Shown here one piece after another: positions 2,835 to 62,119 of a stretch of 64,000 nt of DNA. Every line of letters begins with the position of its first letter. The first letter of the stretch is position 1. The position numbers and the translations under genes were made by a program. Source of the stretch: Marsupella aquatica (lineage: Eukaryota; Plantae; Marchantiophyta); the NCBI GenBank assembly GCA_973895155.1, contig OZ316893.1, forward strand, positions 23,706,015 to 23,770,014. The letters are read 5' to 3'. The notes below the pieces were generated by a model. It was not told the origin of the DNA and made no database searches. It worked only from the letters and a program-made list of their open reading frames with translations.

Positions 2835-3085
2835 ACTATTCATAGTTGGTGGAACTACCGTGCGTAGTTGGTGGAATTATTACGCGTAATTGGTGGAACT
2901 ACTATACGTAATTGGTGCAACTACTATGCGTAGTTGGTGAAACTACTATACGTAATTGGTGCAACTACTATGCGTAGTTGGTGAAATTACTATGCGTAAT
3001 TGGTGCAACTACTATGCGTAGTTGGTGGAATTACTATGCATCTAGTTTGTAAAACTACTATGCGTAAATGGTGGAACTACTATGT
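2835..3085. repeat. 22-bp minisatellite (actactatgcgtagttggtgga-like), about 11 units
   Basis: Directly visible tandem repetition. Confidence 0.9.
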
Positions 3086-16094: not shown

Positions 16095-16340
16095 TTTTGG
16101 CCCTAAGTAATTGATGCCCCAGCTAGGATTTAAAACCCTTTCATCAAGGAATCGCTCGTTTGGCTCCTCCTCAGAACCCAATAGACGATTATATGCTCCC
16201 ATTAGCGAAGATGCTCGATCTAATTAGGTTGGTTTTGAGTAGCAACTCTAACAAATGTCCACACAAGACACCAGGGCCTGGCTAAAGACTAATTCCCTTA
16301 TACTTTTACATGTGACAACCCAGTTAGGGTTTCCAAACCC

Positions 16341-23713: not shown

Positions 23714-24305
23714 CAAAGAATCAAACAGTTCTTGTGCTTCCTCTTTTTCGTCGACTTCTGGATTGAATTGACGGCTGGAGTACAACTCTTGTAGCAGCCT
23801 CAAAAACTGCATTCAAATTCTCTTGGGTCTTGGAGCTACACTCTACATAAGCAGCTGCTCTTATCTGCCTCTTTGGGTCCTCTCCTCGAGATCGTAAGAG
23901 ACCTGAAGTACTGGGTTGGCCAGCTATGAACTTTTTGTCATCCCTTAAATATTGTTTTGTTCCAACCAGGATTATTGGCACCCAGGCGCATAATACCTCA
24001 ACTCGGGAATCCACTTCTTCGAGATATTCTCGGAAGCTAACTGTGCTGATCAGAGAAAAGGCCAAAACAAAAACATCGGCATTCCGGTAGCTCAGAGGCT
24101 GCAGTCTATTGTAATCTTCTTGGCCTGCAGTGTCCCATAACCCAACATTGACTGTTTTGCCATCCAGTGCAACATCAGTGCAGAAGTTGTCGAACACAGT
24201 GGGGATGTAGTCTGTGGGGAAAGTGTTTCTGGTGTAGGAGATGAGCATGGAGGTCTTCCCCACACCACCGTCTCCTACAGTAACCACCTTGATGAACCTG
24301 CTCAT
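23714..24305 (-). pseudogene. ROP: Duplicated ROP GTPase, frameshifted (likely pseudogene)
   Basis: Paralog of 15507-16094 with +1 (~24032), -1 (~23981) and +5 (attga duplication, ~23762-23771) indels. The CaaL motif is lost. Confidence 0.9.
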
Positions 24306-25121
24306 TTTTGGCCCTTAGTAATTGATGCCCCAGCTAGGATTTAAAAACCTTTCATCAAGGAATCCCTCGTTTGGCTCCTCCTCAGAACCCAATAGACGAT
24401 CATATGCTCCCATTAGCGAAGTACTCTAATTAGGTTGGTTTTGAGTAGCAACTCTAACAAATGTCAACACAAGACACCAGGACCTGGCTAAAGACTAATT
24501 CCCTTGTACTTTTACATGTGACAACCCAGTTAGGGTTTCCAAATATATATATAACAAAGGCAGGTTGAGGCCCCCAGCTTGGTGGCACCAGAAATCAGCA
24601 ACAATATAATGAACACCAGAGAGGAAAAGACACTAACTGACATCCTGAAATTATTGTGCAACATATCTCCCTTTCTCTTGCTTAAATGCGTTCTCTCTTC
24701 TCCAGTCATTTGTCAGTCATGCTTGGCTCCCCTTCTTTACTTCCTTGCTAGTTTTTAAGTACGACGTACTTTCCTAAAATGAACCTGCCAAGGCTTACTT
24801 AGACTGTAGCTAATAACGCCGCCCAGTGCAGCTCAAGCTTAGAGAGGAGCCCTAGGCCGTGACTCTTCGTCTGACCTATGGCAAAACGACCCCTGGTGGG
24901 TGGGGGCACACCAGGACACAGGAGAGGAGTCGATTAGGGACAGGAGTAGGGGACAGCCTGCCTAGAGAAGAGGTGGCGGTGGAGGCATGAGAGGAAAAGG
25001 AGATGGGGCTTCGTTTGTGGCCTCCAAGAAGCGTGTGTAGTCGCCCTAGCCTACCCTGGAGCCTGCGCCTTTCCCAACCCCCCTAATCATTAACTCAGGC
25101 ACGGGTAAGGTCTCTTTAAAA

Positions 25122-26178: not shown

Positions 26179-27226
26179 TCAAGCTTCCCAGCCATTACAA
26201 GCCGTGCCAGCCAGTATATTGACTAATCCGTTATTCAGCTTACCCCTATAGTAAGGACATCGGTCATGGCTTGTGAGCCAAGGGGTAATACATTCAGGGT
26301 GGTACATATGACAACAAGGGAGCCTTATTATAGTCTGCCCCTGGAGAAACTGATCAAAACATATAGGACATTGTTCTTGCTCCATCTTGCTATCATTGTT
26401 CCATACAGGTAAAGAAAAGTCAATTATTTTTCTGGGCAAAGCCTCCATCTCTGTTTTGTTCAGCCCGTTCGAATCCTCTTCCCGATCCTCTTCCTCCTCC
26501 CAATCCTCCTCCCAATCCACCTCCCAATCCTCCTCCCAAACCTCTTCCTCCTCCCAATCGTCCTCCCAATCGTTCTCTGAATTATCGGAATCATTGGAAT
26601 CATCAGGATCATCTGAATCCAGCTCCTCCCAATCCGAAGTCCATAGTCTCTCTCGCCTCAATACCTCCTCCTCATTCCACCTCTCATCGGATTCATCCGG
26701 GTGATCTGAATCCAGCTCCTCCCAATCCTCAGCAGTCCATTGTCTGTCTAGTCTCAACACCTCCTGCTCCTCATTCCAACTCTCATCCCCGCTGTCATGG
26801 AAATCATCAGGATCATTGGAATCCAGCTCCTCCCGATACTCCATCCATTGTCTTTCTGGCCTTAATACCTCCTCATTCCACTTCTCATGCGAATCATCTG
26901 GATGATCTGAATCCAGCTCCTCCGAATCCTCCATCCATATTCTGTCTCGTCTCAATACCTCCTCCTCATTCCAATTCTGTAGTCTCACCAACTCCTCTTG
27001 CAGGTTCCTCATCCAGTCGATCCTTATATACCCTTTGCAGCTCTTCCATGTCTCTGAGTAGCAGCCTTTCAAGCCCCCACAAAACCTGCCAGTAAACCCT
27101 CTCGCAAGCTCTATGTAGACGGTGAAAACTCTTCATGCAAGCAATTTCCAGCTTCCTGTAAAACTTACAACACCCCTTAAAGCTCGCTGAATCACGAAAC
27201 CATGAACCTCTGATGTACCTGTCCAT
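26179..27226 (-). pseudogene. Intronless RING-H2 E3-ligase-like gene with W/E/D-rich repeats; degenerate
   Basis: CPICFDQF...LPCCHMYHPECITPWLTSHDRCPYYR is a RING-H2 with the last Cys replaced by Tyr. The ATG-containing frame (27226) and the RING frame differ by one nt around the G-run at ~27075. Confidence 0.75.
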
Positions 27227-33770: not shown

Positions 33771-36102
33771 CTACTCTGATGCATTGAACCTCTGCTGCCA
33801 ATTCTCTCCCAGTATGAACTCCAGATTTTGTTCCATGTTATCTTTTTTCCCGGTTGCACAGCCATACATGATGTCCCTGATCATCACTTGTTTTTTGTTC
33901 TGCACAAAACATGCAACATGCGTACAATTAGAGACCACATATATGGAATTTGTAATTCATCATTACTAGTGAGTGCGTGCAGGAATTGTTAGGCAAAGCA
34001 CGCGAACTGAAATACCCCAATAATACCCCATACACAGAGTGACTTTATTCACCTTGCAGTCCACGCAAGCACTTCTAATCTTACCTGCAGCTCCAAAATC
34101 TTCAACTCAATCGAATCTTCGGCGATAAACCTGACGACTTTCACCGACCTTGTTTGCCCTATACGATGTGACCGATCGACGGCCTGGTCCTCTACCGTGG
34201 GATTCCACCACCCGTCTACCATAAGAACATGTGTAGCCTCAGTGATGTTGAGTCCTGTTTTCGTTGCCATCAAGGACAAGAGGATAATGCTGATCTGCAT
34301 GAAATGAGTAGAAACAGTTTAATTAGAATATGAAGAGTTTACCCTTTGAACAAATACAAACACCGATCTGCACGGATAATGACGGTTGTACCTCTGGGGT
34401 CGTCTTGAAATCATTCAAGGCTTGTTCTCTGACATTGGAATTCATTCCTCCATCAATCCTTGTGAACTTTAGACCAGCCTTCAGAATGTGTGGCTCAAGC
34501 ATGTCGAGACATGAAGTCCATTGTGAGAAAACAAGAGCCTTCTGCCTGGGCACAAAGCTTTCGCTGCTGCCCTGTCCTGTAGTGTCCAGCGGAATCGACT
34601 TCAGGTATTCCAAGACTGCATCAAATTTTGGAGAAGGTGGGTGTCGGACATCATATTCTCTTCGCGCCTTCCCTTTTGACTCCGCACCACCATTCACTAG
34701 CCTCAAATCAGCTGGCCTGTATAGGACCTGGGCTGTCACGTATTTTGAACATTTTGCCGATTTGCAGGTTCCAGTTTCCCGGTCTATTGCACAAATGCCA
34801 CAGTATACATGGCCACAGCCAGAAATCTGAAATGGACTTCCAATCAAGCCCCCCTGCACAATCCAACCATTAAAGTGAGTGCATGCAGAAATTGTTAGGC
34901 AAAGCACGTTAACTGAAATACCTCAATCATACCCCAATAATACCCCAATCATACCCCATACACAGAGTGACTGTACTCACCTTGCAGTCCACGCAAGCAC
35001 TTCCAATCTTCAATTGCTGAAACTCTGACACGAGTCGGGCTCGTTGAGGCTCACTAAGGGGCGTTCTTTGCACTTTGTTCCCGATCTCCTCTTCGCGAAT
35101 TTTACATAAGGAAGGAAGTTTCGGGTGCACTGCAAATTGTCGCAACCGGAGCAGAACGCTCAACACATTCGATAAGGCACCTCTTTCGGCATCACGGAAT
35201 TCCTACAACATTACAGGCACATTAATTGCCATCGAACAGACACCTTCAAGGGATCAAATTGAACTCTCATACGTCTTCAACATTGGGGATTATTAAGAGC
35301 CTTACATACCTTGTATAACTCCTTACTCTTTTCCTCCTGATCAAAATAAGCGTTTCGTTCTTGTTGTGTTCTCCATTCAACAATTTGCACCTCGATCATC
35401 TTAGGGGGCAGTGGGAGTATGCCTGCATGTAAGCACAGTGGCAGGGTAAATGCACAATTGATAAAGAAATCAGGCTTGGGATTAAACAAAGTGAACTCTA
35501 CCATGATATATGCATGCACGCTTACTTTTGTCTCTCCTGAGCGCAATCGCAACCAAGTTTTTCGAGAGGATGCCATTCGCTATCTTTGGCCTTGTCTTCA
35601 GCAGCTTCTTTAACTGCGAGAATTCCTTCCACTCTCCTAAAGGATAATACCTCAGAAAACTGAAGTAAGGAAACAGATCAGAAGCCTCGTTCTGTATGGG
35701 TGTACCGCTTAGGCACCACCTCCTCTCTGCCTTGAGACAACGCGAGGCCTTGAAATTTTGACTAGTTTTATTTTTCATGACATGACACTCATCCAGGACT
35801 ACTCTAAGCCAACTAATCTTAAACAGTGGACCTGCAAGTCTAGGTTTTTTTACAGGTCTCTTCATACTCCCTTTTGGCACGCTGGACGTCTTTGGAGCAA
35901 TGGGAGACTCCCCTATCATGATTGAGTACGTAGTGACAACCACGTCATGGCTTGAAATAAAGTTGATGTCTTTATTCCTCTTGTTGTGGTAGAGGAGGAC
36001 CTTCACTTTTGCTATCTTGGAGGTCCTTGCAGCTATTTCTTGGCCCCATTGAATCACCACGCTGGCTGGACAAACAACTAGAGTTGGCCCCGGGGTCCTC
36101 AC
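33771..36102 (-). pseudogene. SNF2-family helicase, RAD5/RAD16-like with inserted RING: 3' exons (motifs Ia-VI)
   Basis: TLVVCPASV (Ia), DVVVTTYS, WLRVVLDECHVMKN (II), WCLSGTPIQN (III), LLRLRQFAVHP, RING-like CVDC...CGHVYCGIC, KALVFSQWTSCLD (IV), GLNITEA (V), EDQAVDRSHRIGQ (VI). GT-AG introns. Last exon 33900-33771. Confidence 0.9.
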
Positions 36103-36799
36103 TTATTTCCTTCCGACCCATCACGCGCAACTAAGTATAGGGTTTTTTAATTCGATTCCGCGGAAGACTTAAGAAGTTTTGTTGAAGAACTTTAGGGGTA
36201 TAAAAATAAATTGTGCAACTTAGAAGTTTGGTAGGGATGGGTAAAAACTCAATTCTTCAATATAAGTTGTACGTTTAAGATAGGGTATGCTGGGAAAGAA
36301 AATATACTAGTGACACGCGTCAACCTTTAATTGGTCCACGTGGCACTACCTTGCATAAGCATGGTTTAGGGGCAACATGTGGGTTTCATAGAGTTTTGAG
36401 GGGAAAACCCAGGGGAAAATTCAAATTGTTTGTGTGAGCGGGAGGTGGACAGGGAGGGGGGGAGAGCAAGGGTTAGGGTAGCCACTCGAGTGTCACTTAG
36501 GGCCGTCGATCCTGGCTAGAGCCGTTTGGGTGAAATCGTGGGGCCATACATTTGGTCGCTCGGGTCCATGGAAGGACCGATTCTTGTTATAGACTAGTTG
36601 TCGTAGCCGTCCAGCACCAAGTTTAGGGTAAAATTGGGCAGCCATCCATCCATCCATTTGTTGGGCCATCCATCGGCAGTTTGCGATGGCTGGTTAGGGA
36701 ACATTCGAATGCGCTTGTGAAGGAAACTTTTGCAGGGTGAGTTGGGGATCAGGGGCTGGGTGTTGCCTCGACACTTTTACAAAGGAAAAGCTTTGAAGC

Positions 36800-37335
36800 G
36801 GGGGCTGCGATGCAAGGATTGCAATGCTGATTGATGGATTGACTGAGGCGCTGCGCTGCTGCAATGTTGATCGATTGAGCCACTACTGATCGATTGAGGC
36901 TTGAGGTGTTGCACTACTGTGATTGAGGTGCTGTGATTGAGGCATGAGGTGTTGCGCTGCTGTGATTGAGGTGCTGCGATTGAGGCACGAGGTGCTGTGC
37001 TGCTGTGATTGAGGTGCTGCGATAGAGGCTTGAGGTGTTGCGCTACGATTGAGGCTTGATGAGGTGCTGCGCTGCAATTGAGGCTTGAGGTGCTGTGCTG
37101 AAATTGAGGCTGGAGGTGCTACGCTGTGACTGCTGTGGCGATTGTGGCTTGAGGTGTTGTGCTGCGATTGCTGCTATGATTGAGGCACTACGATTGAGGC
37201 GCTGATTGGGAAGGGTTGTGATTGGGGGAGAGTTTGGAAGGAGTTGCTGCTATGATTTGGCGAGGCTATTGATTGGGCAAGTTTGGACCGGGCATTGCTG
37301 CCTGCATTGCTGCCTACATTGTTGCCTACGTTGCT
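36800..37335. repeat. Degenerate short tandem repeats (gattgaggtgctgc; ttgctgcctrca)
   Basis: Directly visible. Confidence 0.8.
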
Positions 37336-38341
37336 GCCTCCATTGCTACTATCATACTGTGATTGGGTGTTCTGAGTTGCGAGCTGCATTGTGGGCTGCA
37401 ATAGAGAGTTCAAGGTGAACCAAGGCTGTGCACGAGTGCTCATTGTGAGCTGATCAAGCTTGGTTGGGTGTGCTTCATCTGCTACAGCTGCTTTTGGTGA
37501 AGTTCGATCTCTATCTCAATCTTGGTGCTTTCGAGTTGCAAGATAATTGTGTTGTAACTTTTTCCTTCGTTGTCTAGCTCCATTTGGACTTGTCAAGGTC
37601 TATCAAATCTGTTGTTTGTCGATCTATCTTTCAGCTTTAATTTAGTTGCTGCCTTTTCGCCCCACTTTAAAGCTTAAAAGCGGCTGCTGTCCAACAGGAA
37701 AGCTCATCGATCTCCAGCTTACTCCTGATAGAGTAGGCGTAGCACCTTTAGTCTATCAATGTAGTAGACTTATCTATGTGAACGATACCGAGGATCCAGT
37801 GTCAGCAGTCTTCAATCTTCAGTCAGCTTCTGTGTAGCTAGCAGTTGGGCAGCCAGGTCTCGCTTCATTGCTTCCTCTCGATGCTCACTAGCTCCATCCA
37901 TAGAAGTCCTTGGCAGAAGCATCCTCGGTTAGCAGCATGCACCCATCTTGGCTCTGTCTCTTCAGTTTCAAGTAGCTCCAATGTATCAACATAATGCCAA
38001 ATAATTACAGTAGACAGGCCCAATCAAATTATTATCAGTTATGTCAATTCAACTTATAAATATGCACATTGGATAAACCTCAGATCCTGCCTCAGTTGTC
38101 TTAGATTCTCGCTCAGATTAGAAATTTGTTGTTGTCGAAGTCACTTGAGGTTGGAGAACTTGTTGCTGGAGTTCAGTCTGCTGTCGAAGTCACTTGAGGC
38201 TGTCTACTAAGTCTCAAACAATGTTGAATACTGAGTACTCTTGGAAGCTTTGTAATGACTGCTCTGCTTATTAGTTTGTTTTATGAATGGTGAATTTGAT
38301 TTGCTGTTGTGATCCTGTGATTCTGACATTGTGTTGTGCAG

Positions 38342-39612
38342 TTTGTCAAAAAAGATTATAGTGCAGGTTCTCAAGGAGCTGTCTAAAGTCTATAAATTGG
38401 AACCAGTATTTGCCAAGGTATGCTAAATTCTAGTGAGCTCAGCTTGAATTTCATTCAGATTCTTCTTTTGTTTTTTATCTTATTGGATGTTTCATGGTAG
38501 AGGTTCAATTGCCTTTCCTCCTTTCTCTATTTAGTCTCCTATATATCTAAGCAAGTTTGTGCTCTACCAAGGACTCATTTCCACCAAGAATGAACTTGGT
38601 CGGAGGTTATCTCTTTGAAATCAGTCAGGTTTTTGATAAATTAGTACATGCTCTCAACTGTTCTTGCAGGATGGGTTGGTTTCCTGATTGGTTCAGGGCA
38701 TCGTGAAGGCATCTAAGAAGCTTCAGCAATATACCACAGTTCACATCCAAAAAGTTGTGAAAGGAGCAGACCTCAAACAACATTTGCTACATCTCTTGCT
38801 TGATAAGGCATTAAAGGTATGCTTATGTTAAGTATGTGTTGTTTGATCAATAACTACCAAGTTAATGTTGACTACAGAGGGGCTGAAAACGGATTCTAAG
38901 TGAATGTTCTGTTGTGCAGAGGTAAACTCACTATCTAGCAAGCTGAGATGGCTTCTGATGTGCCAAGGATTGATATATTTTCCCATAAGGAGCACCACCG
39001 CATGGATCCCCCTTGTTGTTTCTTTTGTGATGAGACAAATGATGTGGTATTTTGTGATGGGCCTTGTAGTAGACATTTTCACTTTGTTGGTGGAAAAGGT
39101 ATGCAGGGGCCCATTTGCACTCCTGTCACATTGCCAGAGAACAATGACTGGAGGGCACCTTGGGTTTGTCAATTGTGTGCTGCCGGCAGAGCTAGATGCT
39201 TTGCTTGTGGACTCATTGGAAGATTTGAACATCCCACTGCACAGGAATCTCTTGTGCTCCATTGTGCCCACCCGGATTGCTTTTCTCATTATCACCCTGG
39301 CTGCCTTAGGGTGTTACTTATGGTTGGGGCACTGCCTTAGAGGTCTCATCCAACCAATCCAAAAACCCTAATATGCCCAAGGCATTTTTGTGAGTACTGT
39401 AAAGTCTACAAGGATGGGATTAAGGACTTTGTACAGTGTCGCAGGTGCCCTCGAAGTTGGTGTCATGATGAGACCTCTGAGGGAGTGAAACACCTCAGGA
39501 GGTGTGTCAAGGGCAGGGACCATTGGGATGTGGAAGGGTGGCGTTTCATTTACTGTCATAGGCATGCAATATTTGAGGGCAACTTGGTCCCTATTCAGCC
39601 TCATACGTCTTA
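38342..39612 (+). pseudogene. EDM2-like / NSD-type composite PHD-finger gene (exons ~38342-38417, ~38670-38816, ~38920-39612), one in-frame stop
   Basis: CFFCDETNDVVFCDGPCSRHFH..WVCQLC..CFACG..CAHPDCFSHYHPGC, then reading through TAG 39338-39340: LICPRHFCEYC..VQCRRCPRSW..FIYCHRHAIFEGNLVPIQPH. This is colinear with the EDM2 PHD cassette as recalled. Confidence 0.75.
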
Positions 39613-39999
39613 GAGTTTGTGAAATTGATAGTACAAAGCAAACTTCTTCTTTTGGCTAATCACATGTGAACAATAACCAACAAGAATTGTTTGTGTTGGT
39701 CTTTAAATGTGGTTATGAAAAGGTTTTTTGAGCAGTCTCTAATTTGATTCATATTGTGTTGTTTACTGTGCTGGATGGCAGGTTCATTATGTATGGCAGG
39801 TTCAATATGTGTATGTGATTGTATTTAGAACCCTTGATGCTTTAACTTGAACGAATTGATTGCAATGGCTACCCAGTTTGTAAAACTATTGCACAAAAAA
39901 AGGGATGTGGTGACTGATGGGAAAGATGAAGAACCTATAGCTGTGTTGGCCTTCAAAGAAGGACAAACCTTAGCTGATTTTTGAAGTCAAATTCCTGAA

Positions 40000-42900
40000 T
40001 TGGTTGATTTTGATTTTGATTTCTGGGATTATAGGCTTCCTGGTCGCATGAAGGTCAACAGTGAGAAAATGACTGAGTTGTCTGAATTGGATGGGAAAGT
40101 TGCTGTCATTGAACAAATTGGATCCCTACCTTCTGCTAGGACAGGGTTCCCATCAGTTTCTGCTGCTGTCACCCAATTGGCTGCAGTGGACTCTTCCCAG
40201 GGTGAACAGCTTCAAGAAGCTCCCCCTGTGAGAGCTTCTTTTGAGTCTATTTTGATGTCTAAGGTGGCTATCAAAGTCTGGAATGATGAATTTACAAGAT
40301 TGGAGAAGTGGATTCACAAGAGTGGTTATAAAAATCATAATTGGAGAGTTCAAACATGGGATGAAGGACAGGATGTGTGAGGCCATCTGGAATGTCTTGA
40401 GTGTAGAGTGGTCTATGGGAGGGCAGATAATTCCCAAGATAAGAAGTCAATTGCTAATTTGTTCAGCAATTTTAAGACCAAGCACCTTGCCTTTGCTAAA
40501 CACAAAGACAATTACTGTAGGAGAAGGGGTATTGCTATGACTGGGGTGAAGTCCTCTGATCTTGCACAGAAGCTTGAGTTTGATTATGAGGGTGCCATAG
40601 CAACTGGCCTAGAGATAGTCCAGAATCTGAATGCTGAGTGTGGAGGTGATGATGAGTTATTTCATGTGCCCCCTGTGCCTGGTCCAGCCAATAATGCAAA
40701 CAAGTGGTTCCTTTATAAGGTTCGTTGCAAAGTCTGTGGGGCAATCATGGATTTGGTTTGTAAGAAAGGGACTTTGGATCACAACCTGAGGACACACTTG
40801 GTCAGTCGAGGTCACCTGGATGTAGTTGAAGCCAGAGAGAATACTGCTGAACTTGCATTGAGATCTGGAAAGAGGGGCAGACCAAGGAAGCCAGATGAGA
40901 GGGATCAACATCCTTCACATAATTCAATCTTAAAATTCTTCAAGGAGGATGCTTCCAATGCAAGCAGCAGCTCTGGCACAGGTGGGTCTAGAGACATTGA
41001 TGTGGGCTTAAGTTTGCTTTGTTGGGGAATATGGGATGAATATGTAGAGTGGAAGAATGTGAAGTATGCTGTGAAGGGTATCTTGCATGATCAGCAGGGA
41101 GGACATGTCTGGAATTTGGATGCTGCAATCTCTGTTCATGTCTACAATCCTAGCACAAATTCTACTGTACATATAGAAGGACTATTTAGGCATGAAGATT
41201 GTTGTAGGTTGTCCTTGTATGGTGGGGGTTTTCTGAACCTAACTTGCAGTAGATGTCATGCTATAACACTAGAAGATGACTTTCGTGGACGGGTGCACAG
41301 GGAAGCGGAGGCTTTAGCAAAGAGAGGGGAAAGAAGCACACAGGGTGGTTTGAATGCACGTTATTTGACACGTCCAGAGTTGAGTACACAAATGCGTCAC
41401 TTGAATGTCAAGAGAAGAAAGGAGAGATGGTTGTTGGCACTACAGACTCAGAAAGTGTGTGCCCTGAGTACTAGGAAGAGAAAATTGCAAGAATTGTTAG
41501 GAGTAGCTGCAGACAGAAAAGATTTGAGACTTTTTTTAAGGAGTATTGTCAATGGTCATAGGAATGGTGCATTTGGTGGAAAAGAAGGTCTTTGGGATTT
41601 CTTGAAGGATATAGGTAGAAATTTGGAGAGAAGTGCAAGGGGGTTTCGCTACAGTCAAAAAACAAAAGCCATTGCTCAGGCTATGTTTCAATATGGAGGC
41701 CGGCAGGTGGCACATGTTTTTGCAAGAAACTTATCTGGGCCAAGCCTGAAGACACTAAAACGAGACAGAGCAAAATTTGTGCAATTTTGTGCTGGGATTA
41801 GGCTAGAAACATTCAAGGAGGTGGCTCGAATTCTGTCTGCTACAAAGGAGATGTTGGGGATTGTAGGGGATGTGCCTGTCATGCTTGCAGAGGATGAAAC
41901 CAGGATCAAGGAAAGCCCACGGTAAGTCAATTACAGTAGCACATAATGATGTGATTGGAGTTTTAGGGTTTAGGACTATTTCTGATGCATGTAGTTTTGA
42001 ACCAATTCTTTGAATCTGACTTAGTTCTCATTGGGCTCTGTGCAGGTGGGAGGCCAAATATGACACTCTCATTGGTTTCTGTGGCCAGAAGGATGGGCAC
42101 ACCTGTGAATTTGGATTAGAAATTCTTGTAGGTGATGGTGAGGATGGCTATAACAAGATTGTTAATACATTTGAGGATTTTAACAAGGGCATGTATGCTA
42201 GAGTTGTCATTGTGAATCCATTGCATGTTGGAATGCCAAAGTTAGCCCTCTGTGCTATTTCAACATGTAACAAATTCAAGGCAGAATGGGTTCGGGAGCA
42301 TTGGGTGCAATTGAAGGAATCTTGGGATGTGCATTGCAGAGACTCTATAGGTCCTTTGCTTGGGCATGCTAGTGATGGTGATGCAAGACGCAGAAAATTG
42401 ATGTTGGAAGACTACAGAGGAGCAAATGGCACTTACCCTAGATTTTCTGTAGGGTGGGAAGGATGGCCTTACTCAGTTGCCATATTGCCTAATGGGGACC
42501 TCTATGGTTTTGGTGATCAAGACCAACCTCATAATGGGAAAAAGTTGATTAACCCACTAGATCGAGTGTCCTCAATAATGGCACTTGGAGACCAACATGC
42601 TTCTCTGTTTCATGTTTGTAATGTATACAATCATTATCCAATTCATCAACATGGATTGAATTGGGATGATGTGAACAGATCTGACCGTCAGAATTGGACT
42701 GGTCCTCAGAGGATAGCATCAGACAAGGTGCGTGAATGTTTAACAGATCTACATGCAAGAACTGATATGTTGTATGAACGAAGCTTGGGGACCGAGTTGT
42801 ATTTGCAAATCTGTGCAGATTATATTGACATTTTCTACTCCCAGAGACATGATCTGAGGACAAGAGTCAAACTGGCAGGCAAAGTTTCTTGGTTCTTTCG

Positions 42901-43459
42901 ACTGTGGAGGTTGTGGTTAAGGTATGGTGATCATGCTGTAGGTGGAAATGTTGCTTCACATACAGAGAAAAATATGATTTCAATCCAAGCTTTTCATGAT
43001 GTTAATATGTCTTGCCAATTCATTGTGTTGCTTGTATGTGCATTTCGTGATAAATTTTCTCACTTGTGTATTCCATTTCATGAGTTGGGTTCTGATTGTT
43101 GTGAGATCTTTTTCAGCAAGGTAGGTGGAATGAGTGGCCATGAGAGGAATAATGATTTTGGCTCTTTGTTGGATAGTGTTGTTGGGTTGAATCGTCTTGC
43201 TAGATTAGAATGTGGACCAGAGGGCTTGAAAGTAGCTCGATCACATAAGAAGCAAGATCATGTGTGGGCCAAGCTTCATCCTTTACTTGAAGGTGAAGAT
43301 GCACCTAATCTTTTTGATTACTCTGAAGTGCAAACTAATGAGTTGGTGGTTGCAGCCTTGAAAGAAGGATTTGAAGAAGCAAAAGAGTGCCTTAGAAGGT
43401 TGCAAATGTCTCCCCGAAGTGATCTGCCAGCATCAAGAAAAATTCCCTCGGATCCATAG
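40000..43459 (+). pseudogene. P-superfamily-like DDE transposase with N-terminal zinc fingers; intron 41922-42045; premature stop 40378-40380
   Basis: CLEC..HL..KH and CKVC..HL...H fingers, AT-hook-like KRGRPRK. Catalytic-type motifs AEDET, HASDGD, DQPHNGKK (DxxH), DRQNW and SDCCEIFFS. Splicing restores SPR|WEAKYDTLIGFCG. Confidence 0.8.
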
Positions 43460-43514
43460 TCATGGTAGTGGTTTAAGTAGGTACAGGGGATAGGTTAGGG
43501 GAATAGGTTAGGGG

Positions 43515-43574
43515 GTGGCATATTTGGATACTTGAGCTTCTTGCTCAATCAGGGGTTCAATTCCCCTTTGCCAC
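43515..43574 (+). other. tRNA-like fold lacking a full D-arm
   Basis: Acceptor-like gtggca/tgccac; stem ttgag/ctcaa with 7-nt loop cttcttg; T-arm agggg-ttcaatt-cccct. Confidence 0.4.
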
Positions 43575-44026
43575 ATACACTCATTTAGATTGTTAACTCA
43601 ATTTCCTTTTGGTGCACCTCCCTTTCACATGAGACAAGCATAGGAGATTTCAAATATGAACAACTCATATTGTATATTGCTGAAGCTTCTACTAGAATTG
43701 AGATTCTTAGTGGAAGCATCAACACTATATACTATAAGTTTTTTATGATGAGACATCATGGATGCCAAAGGAGCATAGGAGGGTTTGACTAAGACTCGAA
43801 TAATCTTGACAAACACTCAAAAAAGGTGCGCATTTGAAAGAACTTTTCTTTTCTTAGTAAGGTATGTTTAAATGAAGGCAAAACTTTACTTAACCTTTTT
43901 TAGGGGTCAAATTTTAAGGATTTGGAATTCTTCTAAGTATGATAAGGAGGGAGAAAAAAATATTTTACTTAATAAGTTAGGGTCACAAGGGACCAAAACG
44001 TCGAGGGTGGTATGGGGACCTCTGTA

Positions 44027-46500
44027 TACTGAGGCCCCTGAGGAGTTGGCCCACACTTATGAGGGCGATTCGCGAGAAATAGCGCTATGACATGCATGGT
44101 TTTCCCCATTCCCTAAAAAAATCCAAGCCAAGAAACGGTCAGGGGCCCACTCACTTGCAGACAAGGTGCGCGCGTACCCCTAACATACTCCAAAAATACC
44201 CCCAAAGTATCCCGCTGAATGAAAATAATGAGTGCAACTTCGGCTTAATTTGGGGGCTTTTGTACCTGGTCATCCGCCAACATCCCACCAATTGGAGAGC
44301 TTTTTCCGGATTTGCGTTCCAACATCCATGCAAGACCAATCCGTTGGTGTGGATATAGAGCTGTAGTCATTGTACCAGGTGGAGGGCATGCCTCCTCTGT
44401 CAAGTGAGACCCTTGGATATCAATCTGCGGATCCCGCTCACAGCCAAGTTAGATATGCTTGAACATTGTTTCTGAAAAAACAGTAATCACACAACAAAGG
44501 AAAAAAATCGCTAACCTTTCCACTCTCTGTGGCACACTCTTCCCAGTGAATGTCTTGTTCTGAATGCTCGTCATCCTCCACTTCATCTTCTTCTTCTTCC
44601 TCTACCTCTTCCTCTTCCTCCACTTCGATAGCCCTCCTCTTCGCTGGTGAGTGACTGCCACTCGGATTAGAGTCCTCTCGCCCTCTCTTTGAAGCACGAG
44701 GCAAATTTGGTTGTCGTGAAATGTGACTCGTCCTAGCCTCCCATCCCAGACTCTTAGTTGGAACATGAAATAGAACAGAAATCGGAGGTGACCCTGGTAC
44801 TTCTGATGCAATTGCACCCGACGATTTGTCCTCCTCTGTAGCTGAGACCTCTACTTTTGATGTTGGTGCAGCATTTGGTGCCTCTCCTTCTAAAAGTGAC
44901 ATCTCTTCTTCTGATGTCGGTACCTCTGCCAGTACTGGTGGTGCGGCTGCCTGTAACTCTACCAAAACTGGTGAGTCACCTCCACTCGACATAGACTCCT
45001 CTCGCTGTATCTTTGAAGTAGGATAATGAATTGGGAAAGTACCTACTTCTGCTGGTGCTGCTACTGGTACCTCTACTATAGCTGGAACACCAGGATAATA
45101 AATTGGGAAAGTACTTGCTTCTGCTGGTGCTGCTGCTGGTACCTCTACTATAGCTGGAACACCAGAAACTGGCGGTAACTCTGAAATTGGGCTACGTTGT
45201 GATGCCTCTGCATCATAACCTGCATGTACCCTGGCACCAAGACCTACCAGAACCTCACAACATCTCTCGTCACCTCCACTCTCACCTTCTCCACTCGATG
45301 TCTCACTGCCAACTTGTTCTGAATGCAACCCAACCTGCCTTTCCAATTCTAATATGCGGACTCTCTGTCTGTCATTTTCTTTCATCAAATCGAGGACCAA
45401 TTTTTTATGATTCTCCACTGCTTCTCGTAGCATGTCCGATTTTTCTGCAAGATCAACCTCTAGCGCACGTATGTGCTGTGATAGAACACGCATGCACTCT
45501 GGCATAGAGGGCGGCGATTTGTGCTCACCCTGAGGACATTTCTGTTCATCCCTGGAGAATTGGGGCGCAACCTCCAATGGCTGCCCCTCACCGTCAGACG
45601 CACCATCCCCTTCCTCATCCTCTCGTGAGCCATCTTCTCCTTCCTCGTCCTCTCGTGATCCGTCATCCCCTTCCTCGTCCTCCTGTGAGCCACTATCCCC
45701 ATCCTTGTCCTCTTCTGAGCCAGCCTCCCCTTCCTCGTCCTCTTGTGAGCCATTTTCCCCTTTCTCCTTGTCGTCCTCCTCATGATCATCTTCGTGTTGT
45801 TCGACCATAAGCTCCTCCAGCGAATACCCGTAGTGTACAAGAATCTGCGTTATAGTAGTGCCACAGTAGCAAGGAAGTCGTTTGTCTACGACACCATTCT
45901 TCGATAGGTGTGACTTTAACCTAAGGATCTCACTCGTCAGATTATCGTACACCAAATGTGCCCAATCAGGCTTCACCACGGGAGTTTCAGCTCCTCTAAA
46001 ACGATCACGTACCCTAATCGTATCCCACCAATACGCCCAGTATACCCACATGTCTTTTGAGGTGACTTGAGTGGGTTTGCTCTTGCCTGAGAGCAATTCA
46101 GAAATCGCCCTGATTATCCCACACCACTGCATATATGGCGCAGTGATTTTGTCTAGACTGTATGGGTTGCCTTTCGTCTTGGCAGAAAACATGGAATTTA
46201 GTTGACCTTGGACCAACCCAGGTTTAAATTGGGCCCATTCTCCAGACGGAAAAGCAAATGCAGCTTGCAATACCTCTCTGTTGAATGTGTGAGTTGCACC
46301 CTGGAATGACACACAGTTTCAACCTTGATCATACCCTACTGCAAACTCCTTTACAGCAGGAATTGCAACTCTGGGCCAGTTGAGTTCAAACATGGAACCA
46401 AACCAGCTTTTCTAGCTAAATTATGGTCTGCAGGGGCCATCCCTAGATAATGCCGTATTACCCTCCCCGAGCATGACTTCCAAATCGTCTCCGTCACGAC
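44027..46500 (-). pseudogene. 5' exons of the SNF2 gene: TE-type N-terminal domain, acidic/coiled-coil region, Q-motif and motif I
   Basis: ORF 46312-44516, then exon 44424-44266 (LYPHQRIGLAWML...GGMLADDQ) and exon 44112-44027 (GMGKTMHVIAL). Both are bounded by AG/GT. Confidence 0.82.
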
Positions 46501-47246
46501 TGTACAAACAAAGCAGGCCTTAGTTGCGCCATTCTAACAATCGATCAATATACTTCATGCGGAATTAAGAACCAAAGGAGTTGAGTGAAAGAGGGGTACA
46601 TACGATCTGTGATATCCTCGTCGCTCTGCATCAACAATGCAACTGGCGCTGGACGATCATGTCGACGAACCATACTTTCACCAATCCTCCAACGTCACCC
46701 CGCGCTCGTCGATACTTGCTTCCGTCGCTAACACCCCAAGTGTTATCCAATGGCAGACTTGTCAGCCACAAAGATCTACGAAACCTACACAATCAAAGAC
46801 TGGAGCTCAGGAGCTTGCACCATTGCCCAAAGCTTATAAGGAATTCCTCATAGGGCATTCATGTGCGCAGTGGCATGCATCATTTAGTCACTGCAGTTTC
46901 AGTAGTAGATCTCACAACAAAGATTCTGTCTCCGATCGGTGGCACCGCCCTTTCACTACCCCAACGTACATTTTATCACGTTCCCAAGTAACCTGGTAAT
47001 ACCCATCCATTATGTCACGTCCGACCTAGAATCCAATGATATTCGTGACCCGTGCCGTCCCCGATCATACCCCGTGCGAAGCACCATAGCGTCACCATCA
47101 CAGGCTCATGTCTGACCTGCATCTCACACATCCTACGGTTTGCATCCTGGTCAGTATTCAGTTATTGACAAAACGGCGCCTCTCAAGTGTTGTCATATCC
47201 CATAGTATCTTTCTTTTTGTCGTACTTGGGACTTTCCATGGTATTA

Positions 47247-50200
47247 CTATACGGTATTCCACCGTACAGGGATACCATGGTGAAGTCCAATTGCACGAAA
47301 ATCAAGCCTCAACGCAACTAATCTTTGAAAGGTGATGTGTTCATCAATTTGTGACGCTGCCTTGTAGATTGGGCAACTTGATCGAGAACCCTGTACAGAC
47401 AACCAGCTCACACCAACCTTCCCGAGGTCCTTCTCATTATCATTTGCATTGTGCGATTCTGCCATGTCATCCCCTCCCTCCTCCTCCTCCTCCTCGTCAG
47501 AAGCACCGTCCACTCCTACATCCCCCGCTTGCATTTCCGTTGCCGCATCGCGCCTGGGAAGGAGGACTTCCCTTACAACACACAGGTCAGGGACGGAAAG
47601 TGAGTCCGCTATTGCAATCATTATGTCCCCTACCTCTGGGAAAGGAGGGCAGTTTGCAATTGTGGTAGGGAGTTCCCGTACTAAAGTATCTCCAATCTCC
47701 AAGGCTACAACCTCCCTCCCGCCTCTTCGAATTGGGAAGCACTTGTGTAGAATTCTTGACATAGGCCTACAATTGTTGCCATGTGCGTGATATACTTTTG
47801 GTTCCAAAAGAGTAAACAGGGAATACTCATCTCGTTCCCAAGACAGTAAATTTCGCCGAGGATCCTGTGTATACTGTTGTTTATACCAATCCGCCTCAAA
47901 GAATATGTCCATGTGGCCATCGAATTCGTGCATGAAAATCTTTTGGAGTACTGCTTTCCAGTTTTGAGGATGTGAAGCATCTGTACTCCCATCTACCAGT
48001 ACAACAACGTGATCGCCAGGCCTGTACACTTCAGCTCTCCACACAGCTGATCACAATGGAGTGCAAGATTCACTAATTTCGTGGTCCTCACTGATGTTGA
48101 ATACTCCAACATCTGTCCAATGCTGCTTCAATGACATCCTGGCGGACAGCCCTAGTTTCTTTGTCAGCTTCCTATTTGAGCCTATGCCAACCCCTTTGCT
48201 CAACAACATGTGCTTGCAACCATATGACTCCACAGAGGATATCATACTATCCCACAATTCCATCGCTAGAATTTGACTTGAAACTATTGGCACCAAATTC
48301 CCGTGTCAGTGTGGGCATTCAGATGGTGGTACAGTGACTCTACACCTGTGCTCCTTACGATGCTCCGCAGGTACACGCAGGGATGCATGAACTTTCTCCA
48401 AAGCCCTCTGATGAGGGAAAAGTCCATCGTCATCTTCCCAAATGTACGACGATATTTTTGTGAAAAAGCGTCGTGCAAAATGCGGGGCAAAATGAAGAGA
48501 ATAAGTGACTTCCTGGTCCTTCTGATTTGTTCTGGTCCGTCCATAGTCTGATACCATCCTCTCGAAGCGGTAGCACCAATAAACATAGTGTGGGCCATGT
48601 CGTTCTATCCCATCAAATATCTCTCCGCTCCCTAAAAATTGGGATCAAAACACATTGGGATTAGAACATCACCTCAGTGCAATGATGGATCGACCAACAA
48701 TGAATACCCACTGTCATCATGGTCATGTAGCAAGTGTAAACAAAATGACTCACCAGCAACATGCTCTAGAATTGCTCCATTTGGGCCCCAAGCCTCTTCT
48801 GAGCGAACTCTCCAAGAAGCCAGTAGAGACCTGCCTTTTTTCAATGTGGCTGTAGTCCAACCCTCTTGTCTACTTCTGATATAAAAGAGGTGTGCAATCT
48901 CTACCAAAAGAATCCCAAGCGTCCCAAGGTCAGAGTGGACACTAATGTCCATCTGTTGGAGGATATGAGGCAGACAATACAATATGAATCGCGTGAAATC
49001 TTCAGCCTTGAAGTATCCCAATCTTTCAAAAGGTTGTTTAGGCCACCTTCCATCAAAACCTCTCAGTTTCCTAGTAGTAACCTCCTCCAGAGCATCTTCA
49101 AACTGTTTTTGATGTTGACGGGGAACACTCGAAACTAGAAGCTAGCAGTATTTCTTGAAAAGGCACAAGGCAAGGATATGCATTGTATCATACACCAGAT
49201 CCTTGCTCAAACAAAATCCAGTAAGCTCATGTAGTCGCCAAGCCCTGGTCATGTTTGAAATCCCGCACTCCCTGCTTATCTTCATCCTCTCTGCAGTTGT
49301 TCGTGCCCTGGTCATGTTCCTGGCCGCCTCCCTCACCTCTTCAATTTTCCGTGTAGGTGGTGGATATCTCATCTGCATCCTATTGTTGTCATACATAGCC
49401 CTTCCCAGAAAACCTCGGGGTTGTGATTGGTCAGTCTCCTTTCGAGGATGATCAAACTTGCACTTCATCCATCGAGTGCTCATTTTACAATTCCTACAAG
49501 CGGAATAACCTGTAACATTCCAGCCCCCAAATTTACATTGTGCGGGATGATCTCCAGTGAAAACTGCTAACAGTGCTCGTAGCACACACCTGGAGTCATT
49601 CGGTACATTATCCTCTTCAGCCAATAATTCCACAGGGTAATTGTAATCCACCTCTATCCCATCCACAAACAACTCCTCCAGTTCTCTTATGAATGGTTCT
49701 AAGAAAGCATCCAAGCATTTCAGCTTTTTTTTTCCTATGTCGTCGTCATCACATGGCAGGATAAAAAGAACAGGGATAGGTGGAATTTTGGTTTGAGACC
49801 CGGCGCTTAAAACTTGGACCTCTACAGTCCAGGTGCTTTTGTGGGCAGTCTTGGCAGACTGAAATCCATCCCAGTGTGCCATGAGTGCAATATTTTGGGG
49901 ATCACCCTGCATGCGGTGGGTCACACTAGTTAGACAAAAGTTACTCTATCATAACCCATAAATACCCTAAAAATACCCAGACCATACCCTGGTCATACAA
50001 AAGTGCGCAACAACAGTAACGCAAGAAGAAATCACTAACCTTTGCAAATTGTTTCGGGGCCGTGACTCGAGATCCGCAATCTGAGCATTGGAAGTCGTAT
50101 TGTTTGCTGACATTATCCCAGTTGGCAGTATCCAACAACTCAGGACATTTATTTGGTGTTGTTGAATAGCAAGCATAACAGTTTCGGCATAACACGGGAA

Positions 50201-51312
50201 TCTCAAACTGTGTGCCAGTGTCCCAAAAGTAGGATAGCTCGGAAGCATGGTAGCCGTCCCACCATTCCTTGTACACAGGTCTGGGCATGGAATCCTTCTT
50301 AAACCACTTATCTTTGTCCCTCCACATTGCCTGGAACTCATGACAAACAGATCGACTGCTACATAACTTCCGCAACATGGGACCAATGAGGAAATATTCA
50401 AACCGGAGCATCTCCTTGCGAGCCGTGCCGCAACCATCCAATGGGCAACGTTCCGAACAACGCAAACAATCCCTGGCTAGATGCCACTTCGTCCCTGCGA
50501 TTGAACAACTGCACTTCAATCCAGTTCGGACATTGTAGTCATCTTGGTGCGACGGCGGTAGGACTACGGGAGCATGCCAGTTTGGCTTCTGTCCAATACA
50601 CATTCTCCACCGCTGCGTTTTTGGCATACCATATGCCTCAAACGTTCCACACAAACCCTTGAATGATGACAATGCATCAATTCCATGGCGTCCTCCGTCC
50701 CATGTCACACCAGCGTGCCTTAGGAGTGCGCCCAGTCCTACATTTGCCATGTCGGATGGAGGGTCGGGTGAAGGTGTCAAATTTGTAGATGGGGGAATCT
50801 GAATCTTCCCAAATAGCATTTTCAAAATGCTATCCTGCAATGCTTGAGGCATTTTAGCCTCGTCAAGCATTGATTGTAATCTCCAAGTCTGTCGATAAAT
50901 TGCTTTGTCCATGATCAGTATTCTTCGAGGCATTATGTGGATACCATACTGCATGGGAAGCGTCTGACCAATCCCATCAACATATATCCAGGTCCTGCAA
51001 ATTGTTTCTTCCAACGTCATCATTCCCGTCTCCTCCTGTAAGTGCCCTGTACAACAAAGTTGGGGCCATATATCTGTGTTCTTGTCAGGACATTTGAACA
51101 CCTAAGAAGCTGGCAGAATGACCATCTTGATGCGATAGGCCATGGCCATCCGGATGCCCACGGTCCACTAAAAACTTTGCAGGAATGACCCTGCCTGTCT
51201 TGTCATAGTTTGCATGTCGTCTTCGATTCCTTGGGCTCACAAAATCATACCCATCCCGTAAGCGCGAACATTTGTACTGACAGGTGCATCGTTCCTTCGG
51301 TTTTGGCGTCAT
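47247..51312 (-). pseudogene. EnSpm/CACTA-type DDE transposase with C-terminal BAH-like domain; multi-exon, several in-frame stops
   Basis: CTCQYKC..RRRH, EWWDG, HWDGFQ, FTGDHPAQCK..GYSACRNC, YDTMHIL, FKAEDF, HGPHYVYWCYRFER, then VYRPGDHVVV..WKAVLQKIF..FFEADWY. In-frame stops at 49142, 48306 and 48051. Confidence 0.88.
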
Positions 51313-53615: not shown

Positions 53616-54597
53616 ACGCCTGCCTAGCTGTATGTTTGGTCGCGTTTCACAGGACTTGGCAAGGAAATGATAATCATTTCCAATCTTATTTTTATGTTTC
53701 TCATATTTATGTAATAATATATACTAAGTGCGTGATGACCCCCCCCCCCCCCTAAAGAAAAGAAAATAGAGTTTTAAAAAGCAAAATGACCCCTGCCTCA
53801 CCCAATGCTTTTGTGTCCCTCCTCTTCAAAAACCCTTATAACTTCACCTTAAAAGCAGGAAAATGTGTTAAAAACTCTCCCCTTGTAAGTCATCATGATG
53901 TGACATAAAGTGTGCCAATGGTCCATATAACTGGCAATATAAGGGCCTAGATCCAACATTTGAAACATGTGGCACATGGCACTGACAAAGTATTGTAGAC
54001 ATTATTATGGGCCCTATTTTAGGCCCCTCATCACAAGTTCAGCCATATAGCAACCTCTATAAGATTCAATGTATGTAAGGAAAGCTCCCACATGTTCAGC
54101 CAATGCCTTCAGAAAATGAAAACTCAGATTTATGTTAGGGGAAGGGTGAGAAATTTAGAACGGAAGGAGACAAAGTCTTTTTTTATTTGATTTATTTTGC
54201 CGCATATTTACTCCATTAAAACGTGCCCAAGTACACAAAGTGTCCGCCATGTCTCCCAAGAGAAAAACTCCGCGTCTCTCTAAAATGAACGTCTCCCAAA
54301 GCTCCGCTTCCGTAGAGTCAACGTCCCCGTAAAATCAACGTCTCCCAAAACTCGGCCCTAAACTCCAGGTCTCCCTTCTGGATCCTCTACTTGCATTCAC
54401 TTTGTGCCCACGATAATTTACTTATCTAGTGACCCCTCTGCACAATTTGTCGAGTGTTCTGCAGTCCGGCTTGTCATTTGATTCGCAACCATTGCAGATC
54501 GGTATTCGTCCCTTCCTGAGTAGTGCTTGCGCCCGGCTGAGTGCCTGCCCTTCGCCACTATTGTTTGGATTTCTGCTGGGCGGCTCTTTTCAGAGAC

Positions 54598-55302
54598 ATG
54601 GCCACACTTAAAGATGTCGTTGGCTGCTGCAATGCTGGAGAAACGAGGACCTTCCCATTGATGAGGGTTTTTGTGGTCAATTTTGATGCTCCAATCGATT
54701 TTCCGCGGAAGTTTCTATACCATGGATGCACTCGCTTCGTGACACCTGGGTGGATGTGTAATCGCACTGTTGAAGGGTCAAGTCGATGTCCCCATAATTC
54801 GGTTGCTGCTGGGACCTGGACAGAAAGGTATCGTTTTGAGGTGTTCCTGGTTGACTCTACTATCGGGCCACACTTCCCTCCAGTGCGAGCTAAGATTTTT
54901 GATGCAGCGACTGATCTCATAGGGATGCCTCCGCAGGATTTTAGCGAGAAGGAAGACTTTGTCCAGTTTGCTACTGTCCATAGAGCTACAGCAAAGATGG
55001 AATGTGTGGACGTAGTGATCCGCTGCAAAGACGGTGAGGCCATTATTAATTCCTTGTCACCTGTAAGCAATGACGACTGTGAGATCTTGCATTCTGTGGT
55101 GCCTACTTCTGTCACTCCACGGAAGACAAAGTTGAAGACCTACAGTGTACCTTCAAGTTATCATACTGCACGAGGGAGGCATACAGCAGAATCTTCAAGA
55201 TCATCTATTAATGCTTCAGACCCGGCCACAGCGTCGCAGCTTAGTTCTGTTAGATGTAGATTGCAGGACCTGCTTGATAGTTTGGATGCAACTCATATCT
55301 GA
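54598..55302 (+). CDS. RPA1 (RPA70) C-terminal-like OB-fold/zinc-ribbon protein
   Basis: FLYHGC..CNRTV..RCPH..RYRFEVFLVDST..AKIFDAATDLIG matches the RPA1 DBD-C pattern Y.AC..C.KKV..C..RY.L...D.TG...F..A..L.G. Intact ORF; ATG follows a ttttcag acceptor. Confidence 0.75.
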   Translation: MATLKDVVGCCNAGETRTFPLMRVFVVNFDAPIDFPRKFLYHGCTRFVTPGWMCNRTVEGSSRCPHNSVAAGTWTERYRFEVFLVDSTIGPHFPPVRAKIFDAATDLIGMPPQDFSEKEDFVQFATVHRATAKMECVDVVIRCKDGEAIINSLSPVSNDDCEILHSVVPTSVTPRKTKLKTYSVPSSYHTARGRHTAESSRSSINASDPATASQLSSVRCRLQDLLDSLDATHI

Positions 55303-60900: not shown

Positions 60901-61705
60901 CGTTGGCAGTCCTTGGATTAATTAAAAGGACTGGAGACTTTTTGCCTCCTTTGGTAGTCCTCAATCATGCAATCCACCAAGAAAACGTACCTTCATTTAG
61001 AGCTATTTCAACAAAGGTACAGGAGGATGCAAGGGAACGGTTGTTGACCGGCAAAAACATGGTATGATTTCTTATTTCCATCCATTGTAAGCCAGCAGTC
61101 TTTATTAGGTTGCAGCGATCATTGTGTACAATGTGTAGACAGAAATTGTATGTGTGGAACGTACTTTTGTGGTCTCATTATGTGGTCATTATATATGTAC
61201 AGGCAAACCAAGAAGAAGTTTTGTGTGCTCAAGGAACCCGGTCGACGAGAAGTAACAAGTCCCAGGCTTCTGGAGACTCCAATATAGTAAGCATATACTG
61301 AGAAGTTTTGCACGATTCTGTAAATAATCATTTATAGCTTGTCATTGGTGTACTACCATATTTTAAAAAGCTCACCAAAGACTGTAACTTTTGCAGAATT
61401 TTGAAAAGCTCACCAAAGACGCCAAACTAGTATTGTGCATGAGAGCCATGGGTTTGATGAAGACCTGCGAAGTGGAGGCCAAATTGCGCACGTTTGTAGC
61501 AGATACGAACAAGCGGTCAAAGACTACCCCCAAGCCATTCACCAAACACGCGCAGAAGAATGCATCAGAGTTATTGGACATGGTGGCCAGGTGGATTGTA
61601 GAGCAGAATGTAGTGATCGTTACACATCTTCCGGCTTTAAATGCCGATGGCCAACAAAGGATCTTCCCTGAAAATGCTATGAAGAAAGCCGGGGAAGAGG
61701 TATAG
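57994..61705 (+). pseudogene. Multi-exon accessory (TnpA-like) gene with an N-terminal SAM-like domain; interrupted by a MITE and stops
   Basis: IEELDLTGESFFCMDEDDW..VGMKTWVHRKKLRRWV resembles a SAM domain. Chain of AG/GT-bounded exons (~58533, 59052, 59541, 59677, 60308, 60532, 61203, 61397). Stops at 59201, 59417 and 59951. Confidence 0.65.
60636..60978. mobile_element. MITE, 343 bp, GGT...ACC termini, 4-bp TSD AAGA; same family as 1022-1390, opposite orientation
   Basis: TIR ggtctattgcaagattgaggactacc / ggtagtcctcaatcatgcaatccacc. aaga on both sides. Shares the internal gagattgaaaggttagatc..gcatgccaa and ggaagtgtg repeats. Removing it restores the exon NPGKE|NVPSF. Confidence 0.9.
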
Positions 61706-61858
61706 TGCTCACTACATAGATAGCATACCTGCATCGCTCTATGAACGGCACAAGCTAGACAGGTTATGAATATGATTGCATTATATATTGACCAAGGGCC
61801 ACCACTACTTGCTTCGTGTTTCACATATATATATACATATATATTCATATATATATAC

Positions 61859-61889
<31 letters not shown>

Positions 61890-62119
61890 TGGGAGTTGCT
61901 AACGTACTTAGTTTCTAATGTACAAATGAATGCTACTTAACTCACTGTGATCTTATTTACAACGCTATGAGGAAATGATTCAAAACCATATTAGAAATTT
62001 GATTTGCGTAAGCTGGGCCCAATAAAGAACCTTACATTCACGATACCCATCGACATTTCATGGTATTCATTGGCAATATGACTGGATGGTTTTTGATGCA
62101 ATTCATCTTGGGACGCCAG

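Follow-up and report, generated by a model that had tools for sequence, protein, structure and literature searches.

Reader modules coupled to a recombinase or an integrase are known from RAG2, whose PHD finger stands beside RAG1, and from chromodomain integrases. H3K9me2 is among the marks bound by Arabidopsis EDM2, which acts with ASI1 and AIPP1 so that transcripts crossing intronic heterochromatin reach full length (PMC7472560, PMC7529245), and the EDM2-type composite PHD is defined by its C4HC2H arrangement (PMC3776765). Plant transposable elements (TEs) encode anti-silencers such as VANC, and Rehavkus transposases bear a PHD (PMC6446971); the P element makes 8-bp target-site duplications (TSDs; PMC3698922). 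In the 64,000-nucleotide stretch of DNA analysed here (contig OZ316893.1, positions 23,706,015 to 23,770,014; "the window" is this whole stretch), a DNA transposon that is filed under the P superfamily carries, beside its transposase gene, a stand-alone gene for a PHD protein of the EDM2 type. This PHD gene is very probably a selected accessory gene of the transposon family.

The PHD gene lies on the transposase strand and inside the nested element (36089-44042), as the first-pass annotation of this DNA had placed it:

38948..39614, plus strand: PHD gene, EDM2/NSD-type composite, single exon, 221 amino acids (aa), three fingers; interrupted in this copy by a TAG at 39338-40

The annotation had also reported that reading through one TAG yields a complete composite PHD ending in IYCHRHAIFEGNLVPIQPHTS*, and this was borne out by the frame and by Pfam. 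A Cys/His-rich frame is open on the plus strand from 38939, is interrupted by the single TAG (39338-40), and has its terminus IYCHRHAIFEGNLVPIQPHTS* at 39614; the open reading frame (ORF) matches Pfam PHD_NSD (PF22908, E 3.9e-8, above the curated cut-off). The feature start that had been given, 38342, is the acceptor of candidate upstream exons, and the ORF itself begins at ATG 38948, in line with the start of P0002, an intact 226-aa homologue, when the two are aligned. Of the zinc ligands expected for three fingers, 22 of 24 show no or almost no variation across a 47-row alignment, and the last finger pair is C203-x2-H206, as in tandem NSD-type fingers terminating in His (C4HC2H). Finger 3 has a Cys, with the next Cys absent, in all three transposon-type proteins and His-x2-Cys in 119 of the 122 other rows; H182, common to all three, may act as a replacement ligand. 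The closest structures to the protein model (predicted local distance difference test, pLDDT, 81) are NSD PHD5-C5HCH H3 readers (Foldseek E 1.2e-3; Z 6.6, root-mean-square deviation 3.2, 93 aligned), and, judged from this fold and from the finger motif, the reader probably binds H3 tails. A PDB sequence search with the protein gave no match, and phmmer against solved NSD sequences gave none at E<=0.1. The transposon-type proteins are 221-247 aa long and consist of the PHD only; the RFD N-terminus and the ELP methyltransferase-like region of EDM2 are missing, and no DNMT1-RFD domain was found in the protein from the window.

Contigs from four public runs, which cover two organism codes and two studies, were placed on 35500-45000 and compared with this copy. 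The PHD ORF is present in many sister-copy contigs and open at the TAG position; a single-copy passenger and an assembly or sequencing artefact were both rejected. At position 39338 all depth is C or G in all four runs (C on 7, 10, 5 and 9 contigs), and the TAG is therefore in no sister copy placed there. No insertions or deletions are listed among the sister-copy contigs in 39235-39450, and 37 differences are listed over these 216 bp, three in the TAG codon and 34 elsewhere. The latter comprise 19 silent and 15 replacement changes, against an expected silent share of 0.22-0.30 (transition weights 1-8), and omega for the stretch is 0.22-0.35 (p 2e-5 to 2e-3; 216 of 666 bp). Silent changes outnumber replacements in the finger parts (14 to 3), the variable linker holds 5 silent and 12 replacement changes, and all 34 variants leave the zinc ligands in place. 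Over these 216 bp the data indicate purifying selection on the PHD gene rather than neutral evolution. Summed depth in run X4 is 649-701 over the PHD gene, 289-742 over the transposase and 27-65 over the 5' arm, with a like pattern in the other three runs; these values were used relatively only, because depth is no copy number. Furthermore, the ratio of observed to expected CpG is 0.19 in the PHD gene and 0.15 and 0.22 in the transposase exons, compared with 0.51-0.56 in the host element and the window. The equal depletion in both genes fits a long, shared and methylated history, and we infer such a history of the PHD gene with the transposase from this base composition.

The transposase gene follows on the same strand:

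39865..41922, plus strand: transposase exon 1, with C2H2-like zinc fingers by eye and the first catalytic Asp near its end (translation, tblastn)
41923..42046, plus strand: predicted 124-bp GT-AG intron (sequence; uninterrupted ORF of relatives)
42047..43459, plus strand: transposase exon 2, encoding the catalytic core, in which D, D-x2-H and E motifs are present (model, Foldseek, identity to P0004)

The PHD stop lies 250 bp from the likely transposase ATG (39865) and about 370 bp from the first stop-free ORF (39985), so that the upstream position reported for the PHD stands and the distance of about 400 bp does not. Exon 1 was delimited by tblastn to the intact relatives L001, L004 and L007 and contains premature TGA codons at 39982 and 40378. 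In two of these relatives (L001, 1181-5731; L004, 794-5353) one ORF of 1517-1520 aa, with no Pfam match, spans the intron point; no contig skips the predicted intron cleanly among the 15 of 36 joints listed. Exon 2 is 72% identical to the homologue P0004 up to a break, and about 330 C-terminal aa are missing. Because the transposase holds two stops and is truncated, this element copy is dead. The intact P-type transposases close with a conserved domain of about 200 aa (L001:5060-5719; L004:4688-5353; P0004 residues 546-774), which has been lost from the window copy; by eye this domain had looked BAH/Tudor-like, and PDB, Pfam and Atlas searches gave that identity no support.

The predicted core (pLDDT 83.6) has just two Foldseek matches at E<=0.001, both of them Drosophila P transposase (6P5A, 6PE2; E 2e-4, template-modelling score about 0.5, structural alignment of 369 columns). 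The core shows the motifs AEDET, HASDGD, DQDQPH and SDCCEIFFS, and all of 29 aligned rows keep D159 and H162; a DDE triad with D-x2-H is the motif of the P superfamily. Pfam TNP-like_RNaseH_N is matched by 3 of 29 homologues (best E 2.6e-4); the window transposase has no Pfam match, a PDB sequence search with the transposase profile also gave none, and no THAP domain was matched by Pfam in the exon-1 ORFs or the intact relatives. The transposon is filed under the P superfamily on the basis of the modelled core fold, D-x2-H and an 8-bp duplication typical of P. In all, 81 transposase homologues were found, the named ones coming from Riccia and Adiantum, and the P-type clade that includes these proteins is broad and almost without Pfam annotation.

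The boundaries of the element and its insertion site were defined as follows:

36089..44042, plus strand: DNA transposon copy filed under the P superfamily, 7,954 bp, a non-autonomous relic (empty site, target duplication)
36081..36088, plus strand: left 8-bp TSD, GAGTTGGC (sequence; register with the best terminal repeat)
44043..44050, plus strand: right 8-bp TSD, GAGTTGGC (sequence; register with the best terminal repeat)
36089..36101, plus strand: left imperfect terminal inverted repeat (TIR), 10/13 matches to the right end
44030..44042, minus strand: right imperfect TIR, pairing with the left end
35482..36080, minus strand: host exon of a SNF2 ATPase, interrupted by the insertion and belonging to a probable CACTA-like element; the gene continues upstream beyond 44050

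The empty site is represented by one contig of run X4, in which 36080 is followed directly by 44043 (a skip of 7962, the element plus one 8-bp duplication), and 23 loose contig ends in the same run fall just before 36089. The flanks share 10 bp; among the four registers examined the 8-bp duplication gives the best terminal repeat, and the element is therefore 36089-44042. The chance rate of a 10/13 repeat is 1.9e-4 per comparison, with four registers compared at a single insertion. The interrupted exon matches Pfam SNF2-rel_dom (E 2.7e-32), and its minus-strand frame is continuous at the empty site, with the element removed. A Transposase_21 ORF precedes the SNF2 gene, which all four runs cover deeply and in near-identical form, and from this the insertion target is inferred to be a young CACTA-like element. 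This target occupies 34080-36080 and 44051-51101 (minus strand), with Transposase_21 at 49145-49945 and an intron-containing SNF2 ATPase that has a RING-like stretch and a helicase C domain and is RAD5/16-like by eye. In view of its deep and near-identical coverage in four runs, the target may represent a second transposon family, again with a passenger related to chromatin. Separately, the summed depth at the left end of the inserted element (35817-36450) is very high, up to 97,000 in run X2, which suggests many short non-autonomous derivatives.

Among 1.84 billion representatives searched by profile, 246 matched at E<=0.001. P0002 and P0003, two intact proteins that stand alone, have 55-56% identity to the window protein and share its end point; P0086 is a fragment near P0003, and P0128 seems to be a close copy with a frame shift. 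The best cellular matches are short liverwort proteins (Riccia, Marchantia, Calypogeia) at about 30% identity, followed in the ranking by named EDM2-like proteins of mosses and angiosperms. An unrelated PHD was rejected, the best cellular matches being EDM2-family PHDs as the first-pass annotation had supposed, and so was a host EDM2 orthologue; the protein is PHD only, with the RFD N-terminus and ELP region missing. Trees were drawn from subsets of the 125 PHD regions that were long enough: 59 rows, 28 rows (five long-branch rows taken out) and 25 rows (restored). The transposon-type PHDs group with the short liverwort paralogues in the 28-row tree (support 99/99) and in the 25-row tree (90/99), where P0218 joins as sister; their stem branch is long (1.9-2.8 changes per column). 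As judged by these sequence comparisons, the reader was probably taken from a liverwort EDM2-like paralogue a long time ago; a liverwort donor is probable and unproven because the tree groupings differ and in view of the topology test given below. The host of the element, judged from the cellular matches, is probably a liverwort too. P0090 (Marchantia Mp4g03050, 280 aa) and P0138 are further nearly PHD-only EDM2-like proteins of the short paralogue group.

Several observations weigh against this account of a captured and selected gene and against the cofactor reading given below. The selection count covers 216 of the 666 bp, includes variants of at least 10% share, and was scored against the codons of this copy without a tree. 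The interval between the PHD and the transposase ATG is not bridged by any listed contig, the longest of them covering 39542-39841, and P0002 and P0003 were compared as protein sequences. The structural matches of the PHD model are modest, with none in Foldseek at E<=0.001 and Z below 8. In a quick mixture tree of 59 rows the transposon-type PHDs fall beside long algal-type branches, and the approximately unbiased test did not reject grouping with canonical EDM2 (p 0.097). Finally, two PHD profiles were applied to metagenome transposase loci (80 kept of 108 confirmed, 24-53% identity), and an EDM2-type PHD was found at none of the 80; stretches of 950 bp or more before the estimated start were available at 16 of the 80, for five of these 16 the stretch was about 7 kb or more, and some were near-duplicates. 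PHD profile scans of the metagenome contigs and genome contigs gave no match, and the one match in a viral contig (L081, 32 residues, E 4e-4) looks fortuitous. Given its absence from the 80 loci, the capture of the PHD looks lineage-specific, and the transposase clade works without it.

Our tentative reading, held at somewhat less than even confidence, is that the reader is a transposase cofactor that reads H3 tails and acts through the transposase. A cut-and-paste family of the P superfamily would carry a stand-alone EDM2-type triple zinc-finger gene derived from a liverwort EDM2-like paralogue, and the reader would have been kept as a histone-tail-reading cofactor that tethers the transposase to marked nucleosomes. 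This reading is preferred because a bare reader, with no catalytic or evident DNA-binding domain, would favour its own family most simply via the transposase; the transposase would recognise the element ends, and a reader bound to it would gain family specificity. The reader would thus be a partner of the transposase and might affect excision or target choice. The first-pass annotation had proposed a captured heterochromatin reader of H3K9me-marked chromatin; the EDM2-type reader in a P-like element is upheld, and the H3K9me specificity gained no support, given the short liverwort relatives, the long branch and the change of ligand in finger 3. The protein keeps the fingers alone, the intron of the transposase gene is single and short, and the mark specificity of EDM2 is not transferable. 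H3K27me3 is carried by many transposons of Marchantia (10.1101/827881), and across land plants DNA transposons lean towards this mark (PMC11982613). The earlier suggestion of targeting, drawn from the insertion into another transposon, was not upheld: it concerns a single insertion, the target being a coding exon of an element that is young and present in many copies, and the window is rich in repeats, so that no preference can be read from it. One insertion into another element does not discriminate among the functional readings. A wider version of the cofactor reading, in which an EDM2-like host surveillance module was remodelled by the liverwort P lineage into a separate cofactor that steers or licenses transposition via repressive marks, by analogy with RAG2 and RAG1, is rather unlikely as it stands.

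An anti-silencing or expression factor is a close rival to the cofactor reading, itself possible and short of probable. Such a factor would bind H3 tails on silenced copies of the element and shield these copies from host readers, compete with host EDM2-like proteins, or recruit factors of the ASI1/AIPP1 type so that full-length transposase RNA is made. The known role of EDM2 with ASI1 and AIPP1 and the anti-silencers of plant TEs such as VANC provide precedent; the strong CpG depletion of the element's coding DNA fits long exposure to methylation, the long stem branch fits an arms race, and the evidence of purifying selection on the PHD applies equally here. However, there is no DNMT1-RFD, the 221 aa leave no room for the ELP methyltransferase-like region (PMC7529245), and no evident sequence-specific module would confine the benefit to the element's own family. 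The ASI1/AIPP1-type mechanism put forward in the first-pass annotation was not sustained, since the other domains of EDM2 are missing and the transposase gene has one predicted 124-bp intron, not intronic heterochromatin. The proximity of the two genes, on the same strand and 250 bp apart, together with an in-frame acceptor at 38937-38 right before the ORF and the precedent of Rehavkus, would instead allow the PHD exon to be spliced to the transposase or to upstream exons as a domain of one protein. This is improbable: the stop is at the same place in three lineages that are 55-59% identical, no PHD-transposase fusion occurs among 149 PHD matches or 81 transposase homologues (many of these records being gene calls that ignore splicing), and a search for longer proteins gave one match and none fused, which is weak evidence. 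Passenger capture as in Pack-MULEs, with apparent constraint arising from host benefit or a few domesticated copies, is decidedly improbable. Gene capture is common in plant DNA transposons (PMC13317346), the PHD is missing at all 80 related loci, and the window has further TE-borne or duplicated host-type genes; yet silent changes are in excess, the zinc ligands are untouched by the 34 variants, the PHD is about 30% identical to the nearest cellular gene and nevertheless intact in three lineages, the finger-3 ligand swap is common to all three, and its CpG depletion equals that of the transposase.

Upstream of the PHD ORF the following feature was noted:

38342..38816, plus strand: two candidate upstream exons (38342-38417 and 38670-38816; splice-site motifs; TGA at 38685)

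They may be a 5' untranslated region, may extend the PHD protein at its N-terminus or may form a small ORF of their own, and they have no homologue among the proteins and loci collected in this analysis. Of the two acceptors before the PHD ORF, 38918-19 leads to an immediate stop, and 38937-38, the weaker-looking one, leads into the PHD frame. Elsewhere in the window, two intronless Ras-family (Rab-like) GTPase ORFs (15510-16223 and 23724-24314, minus strand) lie in a segment duplicated 8.2 kb apart, and a RING-H2 ORF with a proline-rich repeat is at 26182-27132 (minus strand). A 610-aa ORF without a Pfam match (8062-9894, minus strand) lies between 99% identical direct repeats (6798-7097 and 10078-10377) that are 3,280 bp apart, and a 253-aa ORF at 54541-55302 looks by eye like an RPA-type OB fold with a zinc ribbon, with no Pfam match at E 0.01. 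Repeats at 1-4700 and 61263-63100, which are 97-99% identical and 61.3 kb apart, contain 158-bp tandem arrays, with a DUF4218 ORF at 4022-4669, and are probably the ends of another CACTA family.

In the literature found, histone readers that are encoded separately and under selection are rare among DNA transposons. No DNA transposon with an EDM2-type PHD and no P-type element in land plants was found there, in a search whose scope lay outside Repbase, most subscription papers and supplements and which is thus not proof of absence; the TE tables in genome-paper supplements may list such elements. If the reader does steer or license transposition, it would be a testable module of about 220 aa that links a chromatin mark to target choice or to escape from silencing, and an uncharacterised family of liverwort EDM2-like paralogues would be implicated in host-transposon conflict.

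Compared with Drosophila P and its superfamily (P, 1360, Galileo; THAP9), the element shares the predicted core fold, the D, D-x2-H and E motifs, the 8-bp TSD and a short TIR. Dissimilar from Drosophila P, it has no Pfam THAP match but C2H2-like fingers by eye, a second, PHD-encoding gene, an imperfect TIR of 13 bp and a host that is probably a land plant, and its intact relatives are about 1,500 aa long with an extra C-terminal domain. The reader resembles Arabidopsis EDM2 and plant EDM2-like proteins in its composite NSD-type PHD block, which has a final His and keeps 22 of 24 ligands (26-31% identity), but it is PHD only, has Cys for His-x2-Cys in finger 3, and groups in two of the three trees with Riccia R1sor_003797, Marchantia Mp1g03210 and Mp4g03050, and Calypogeia rather than with canonical EDM2. 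The Pfam PHD_NSD match and the best structural matches, to NSD PHD5-C5HCH, recall the PHD fingers of NSD1/2/3; here, however, there is no SET or PWWP domain, and plant EDM2-like proteins are far closer. Similar to VANC of the VANDAL elements, the reader comes from an accessory gene that a plant DNA transposon carries next to its DDE transposase (PMC6446971); whereas VANC is a sequence-specific factor of Mutator-like elements, a histone-reader fold is predicted here in a P-type element. Rehavkus likewise couples a chromatin-reader module to a transposase, with the PHD lying within the transposase (PMC6446971). In contrast to Rehavkus, RAG and the chromodomain integrases, which belong to other superfamilies, the module described here is a separate EDM2/NSD-type ORF traceable to a plant gene family.
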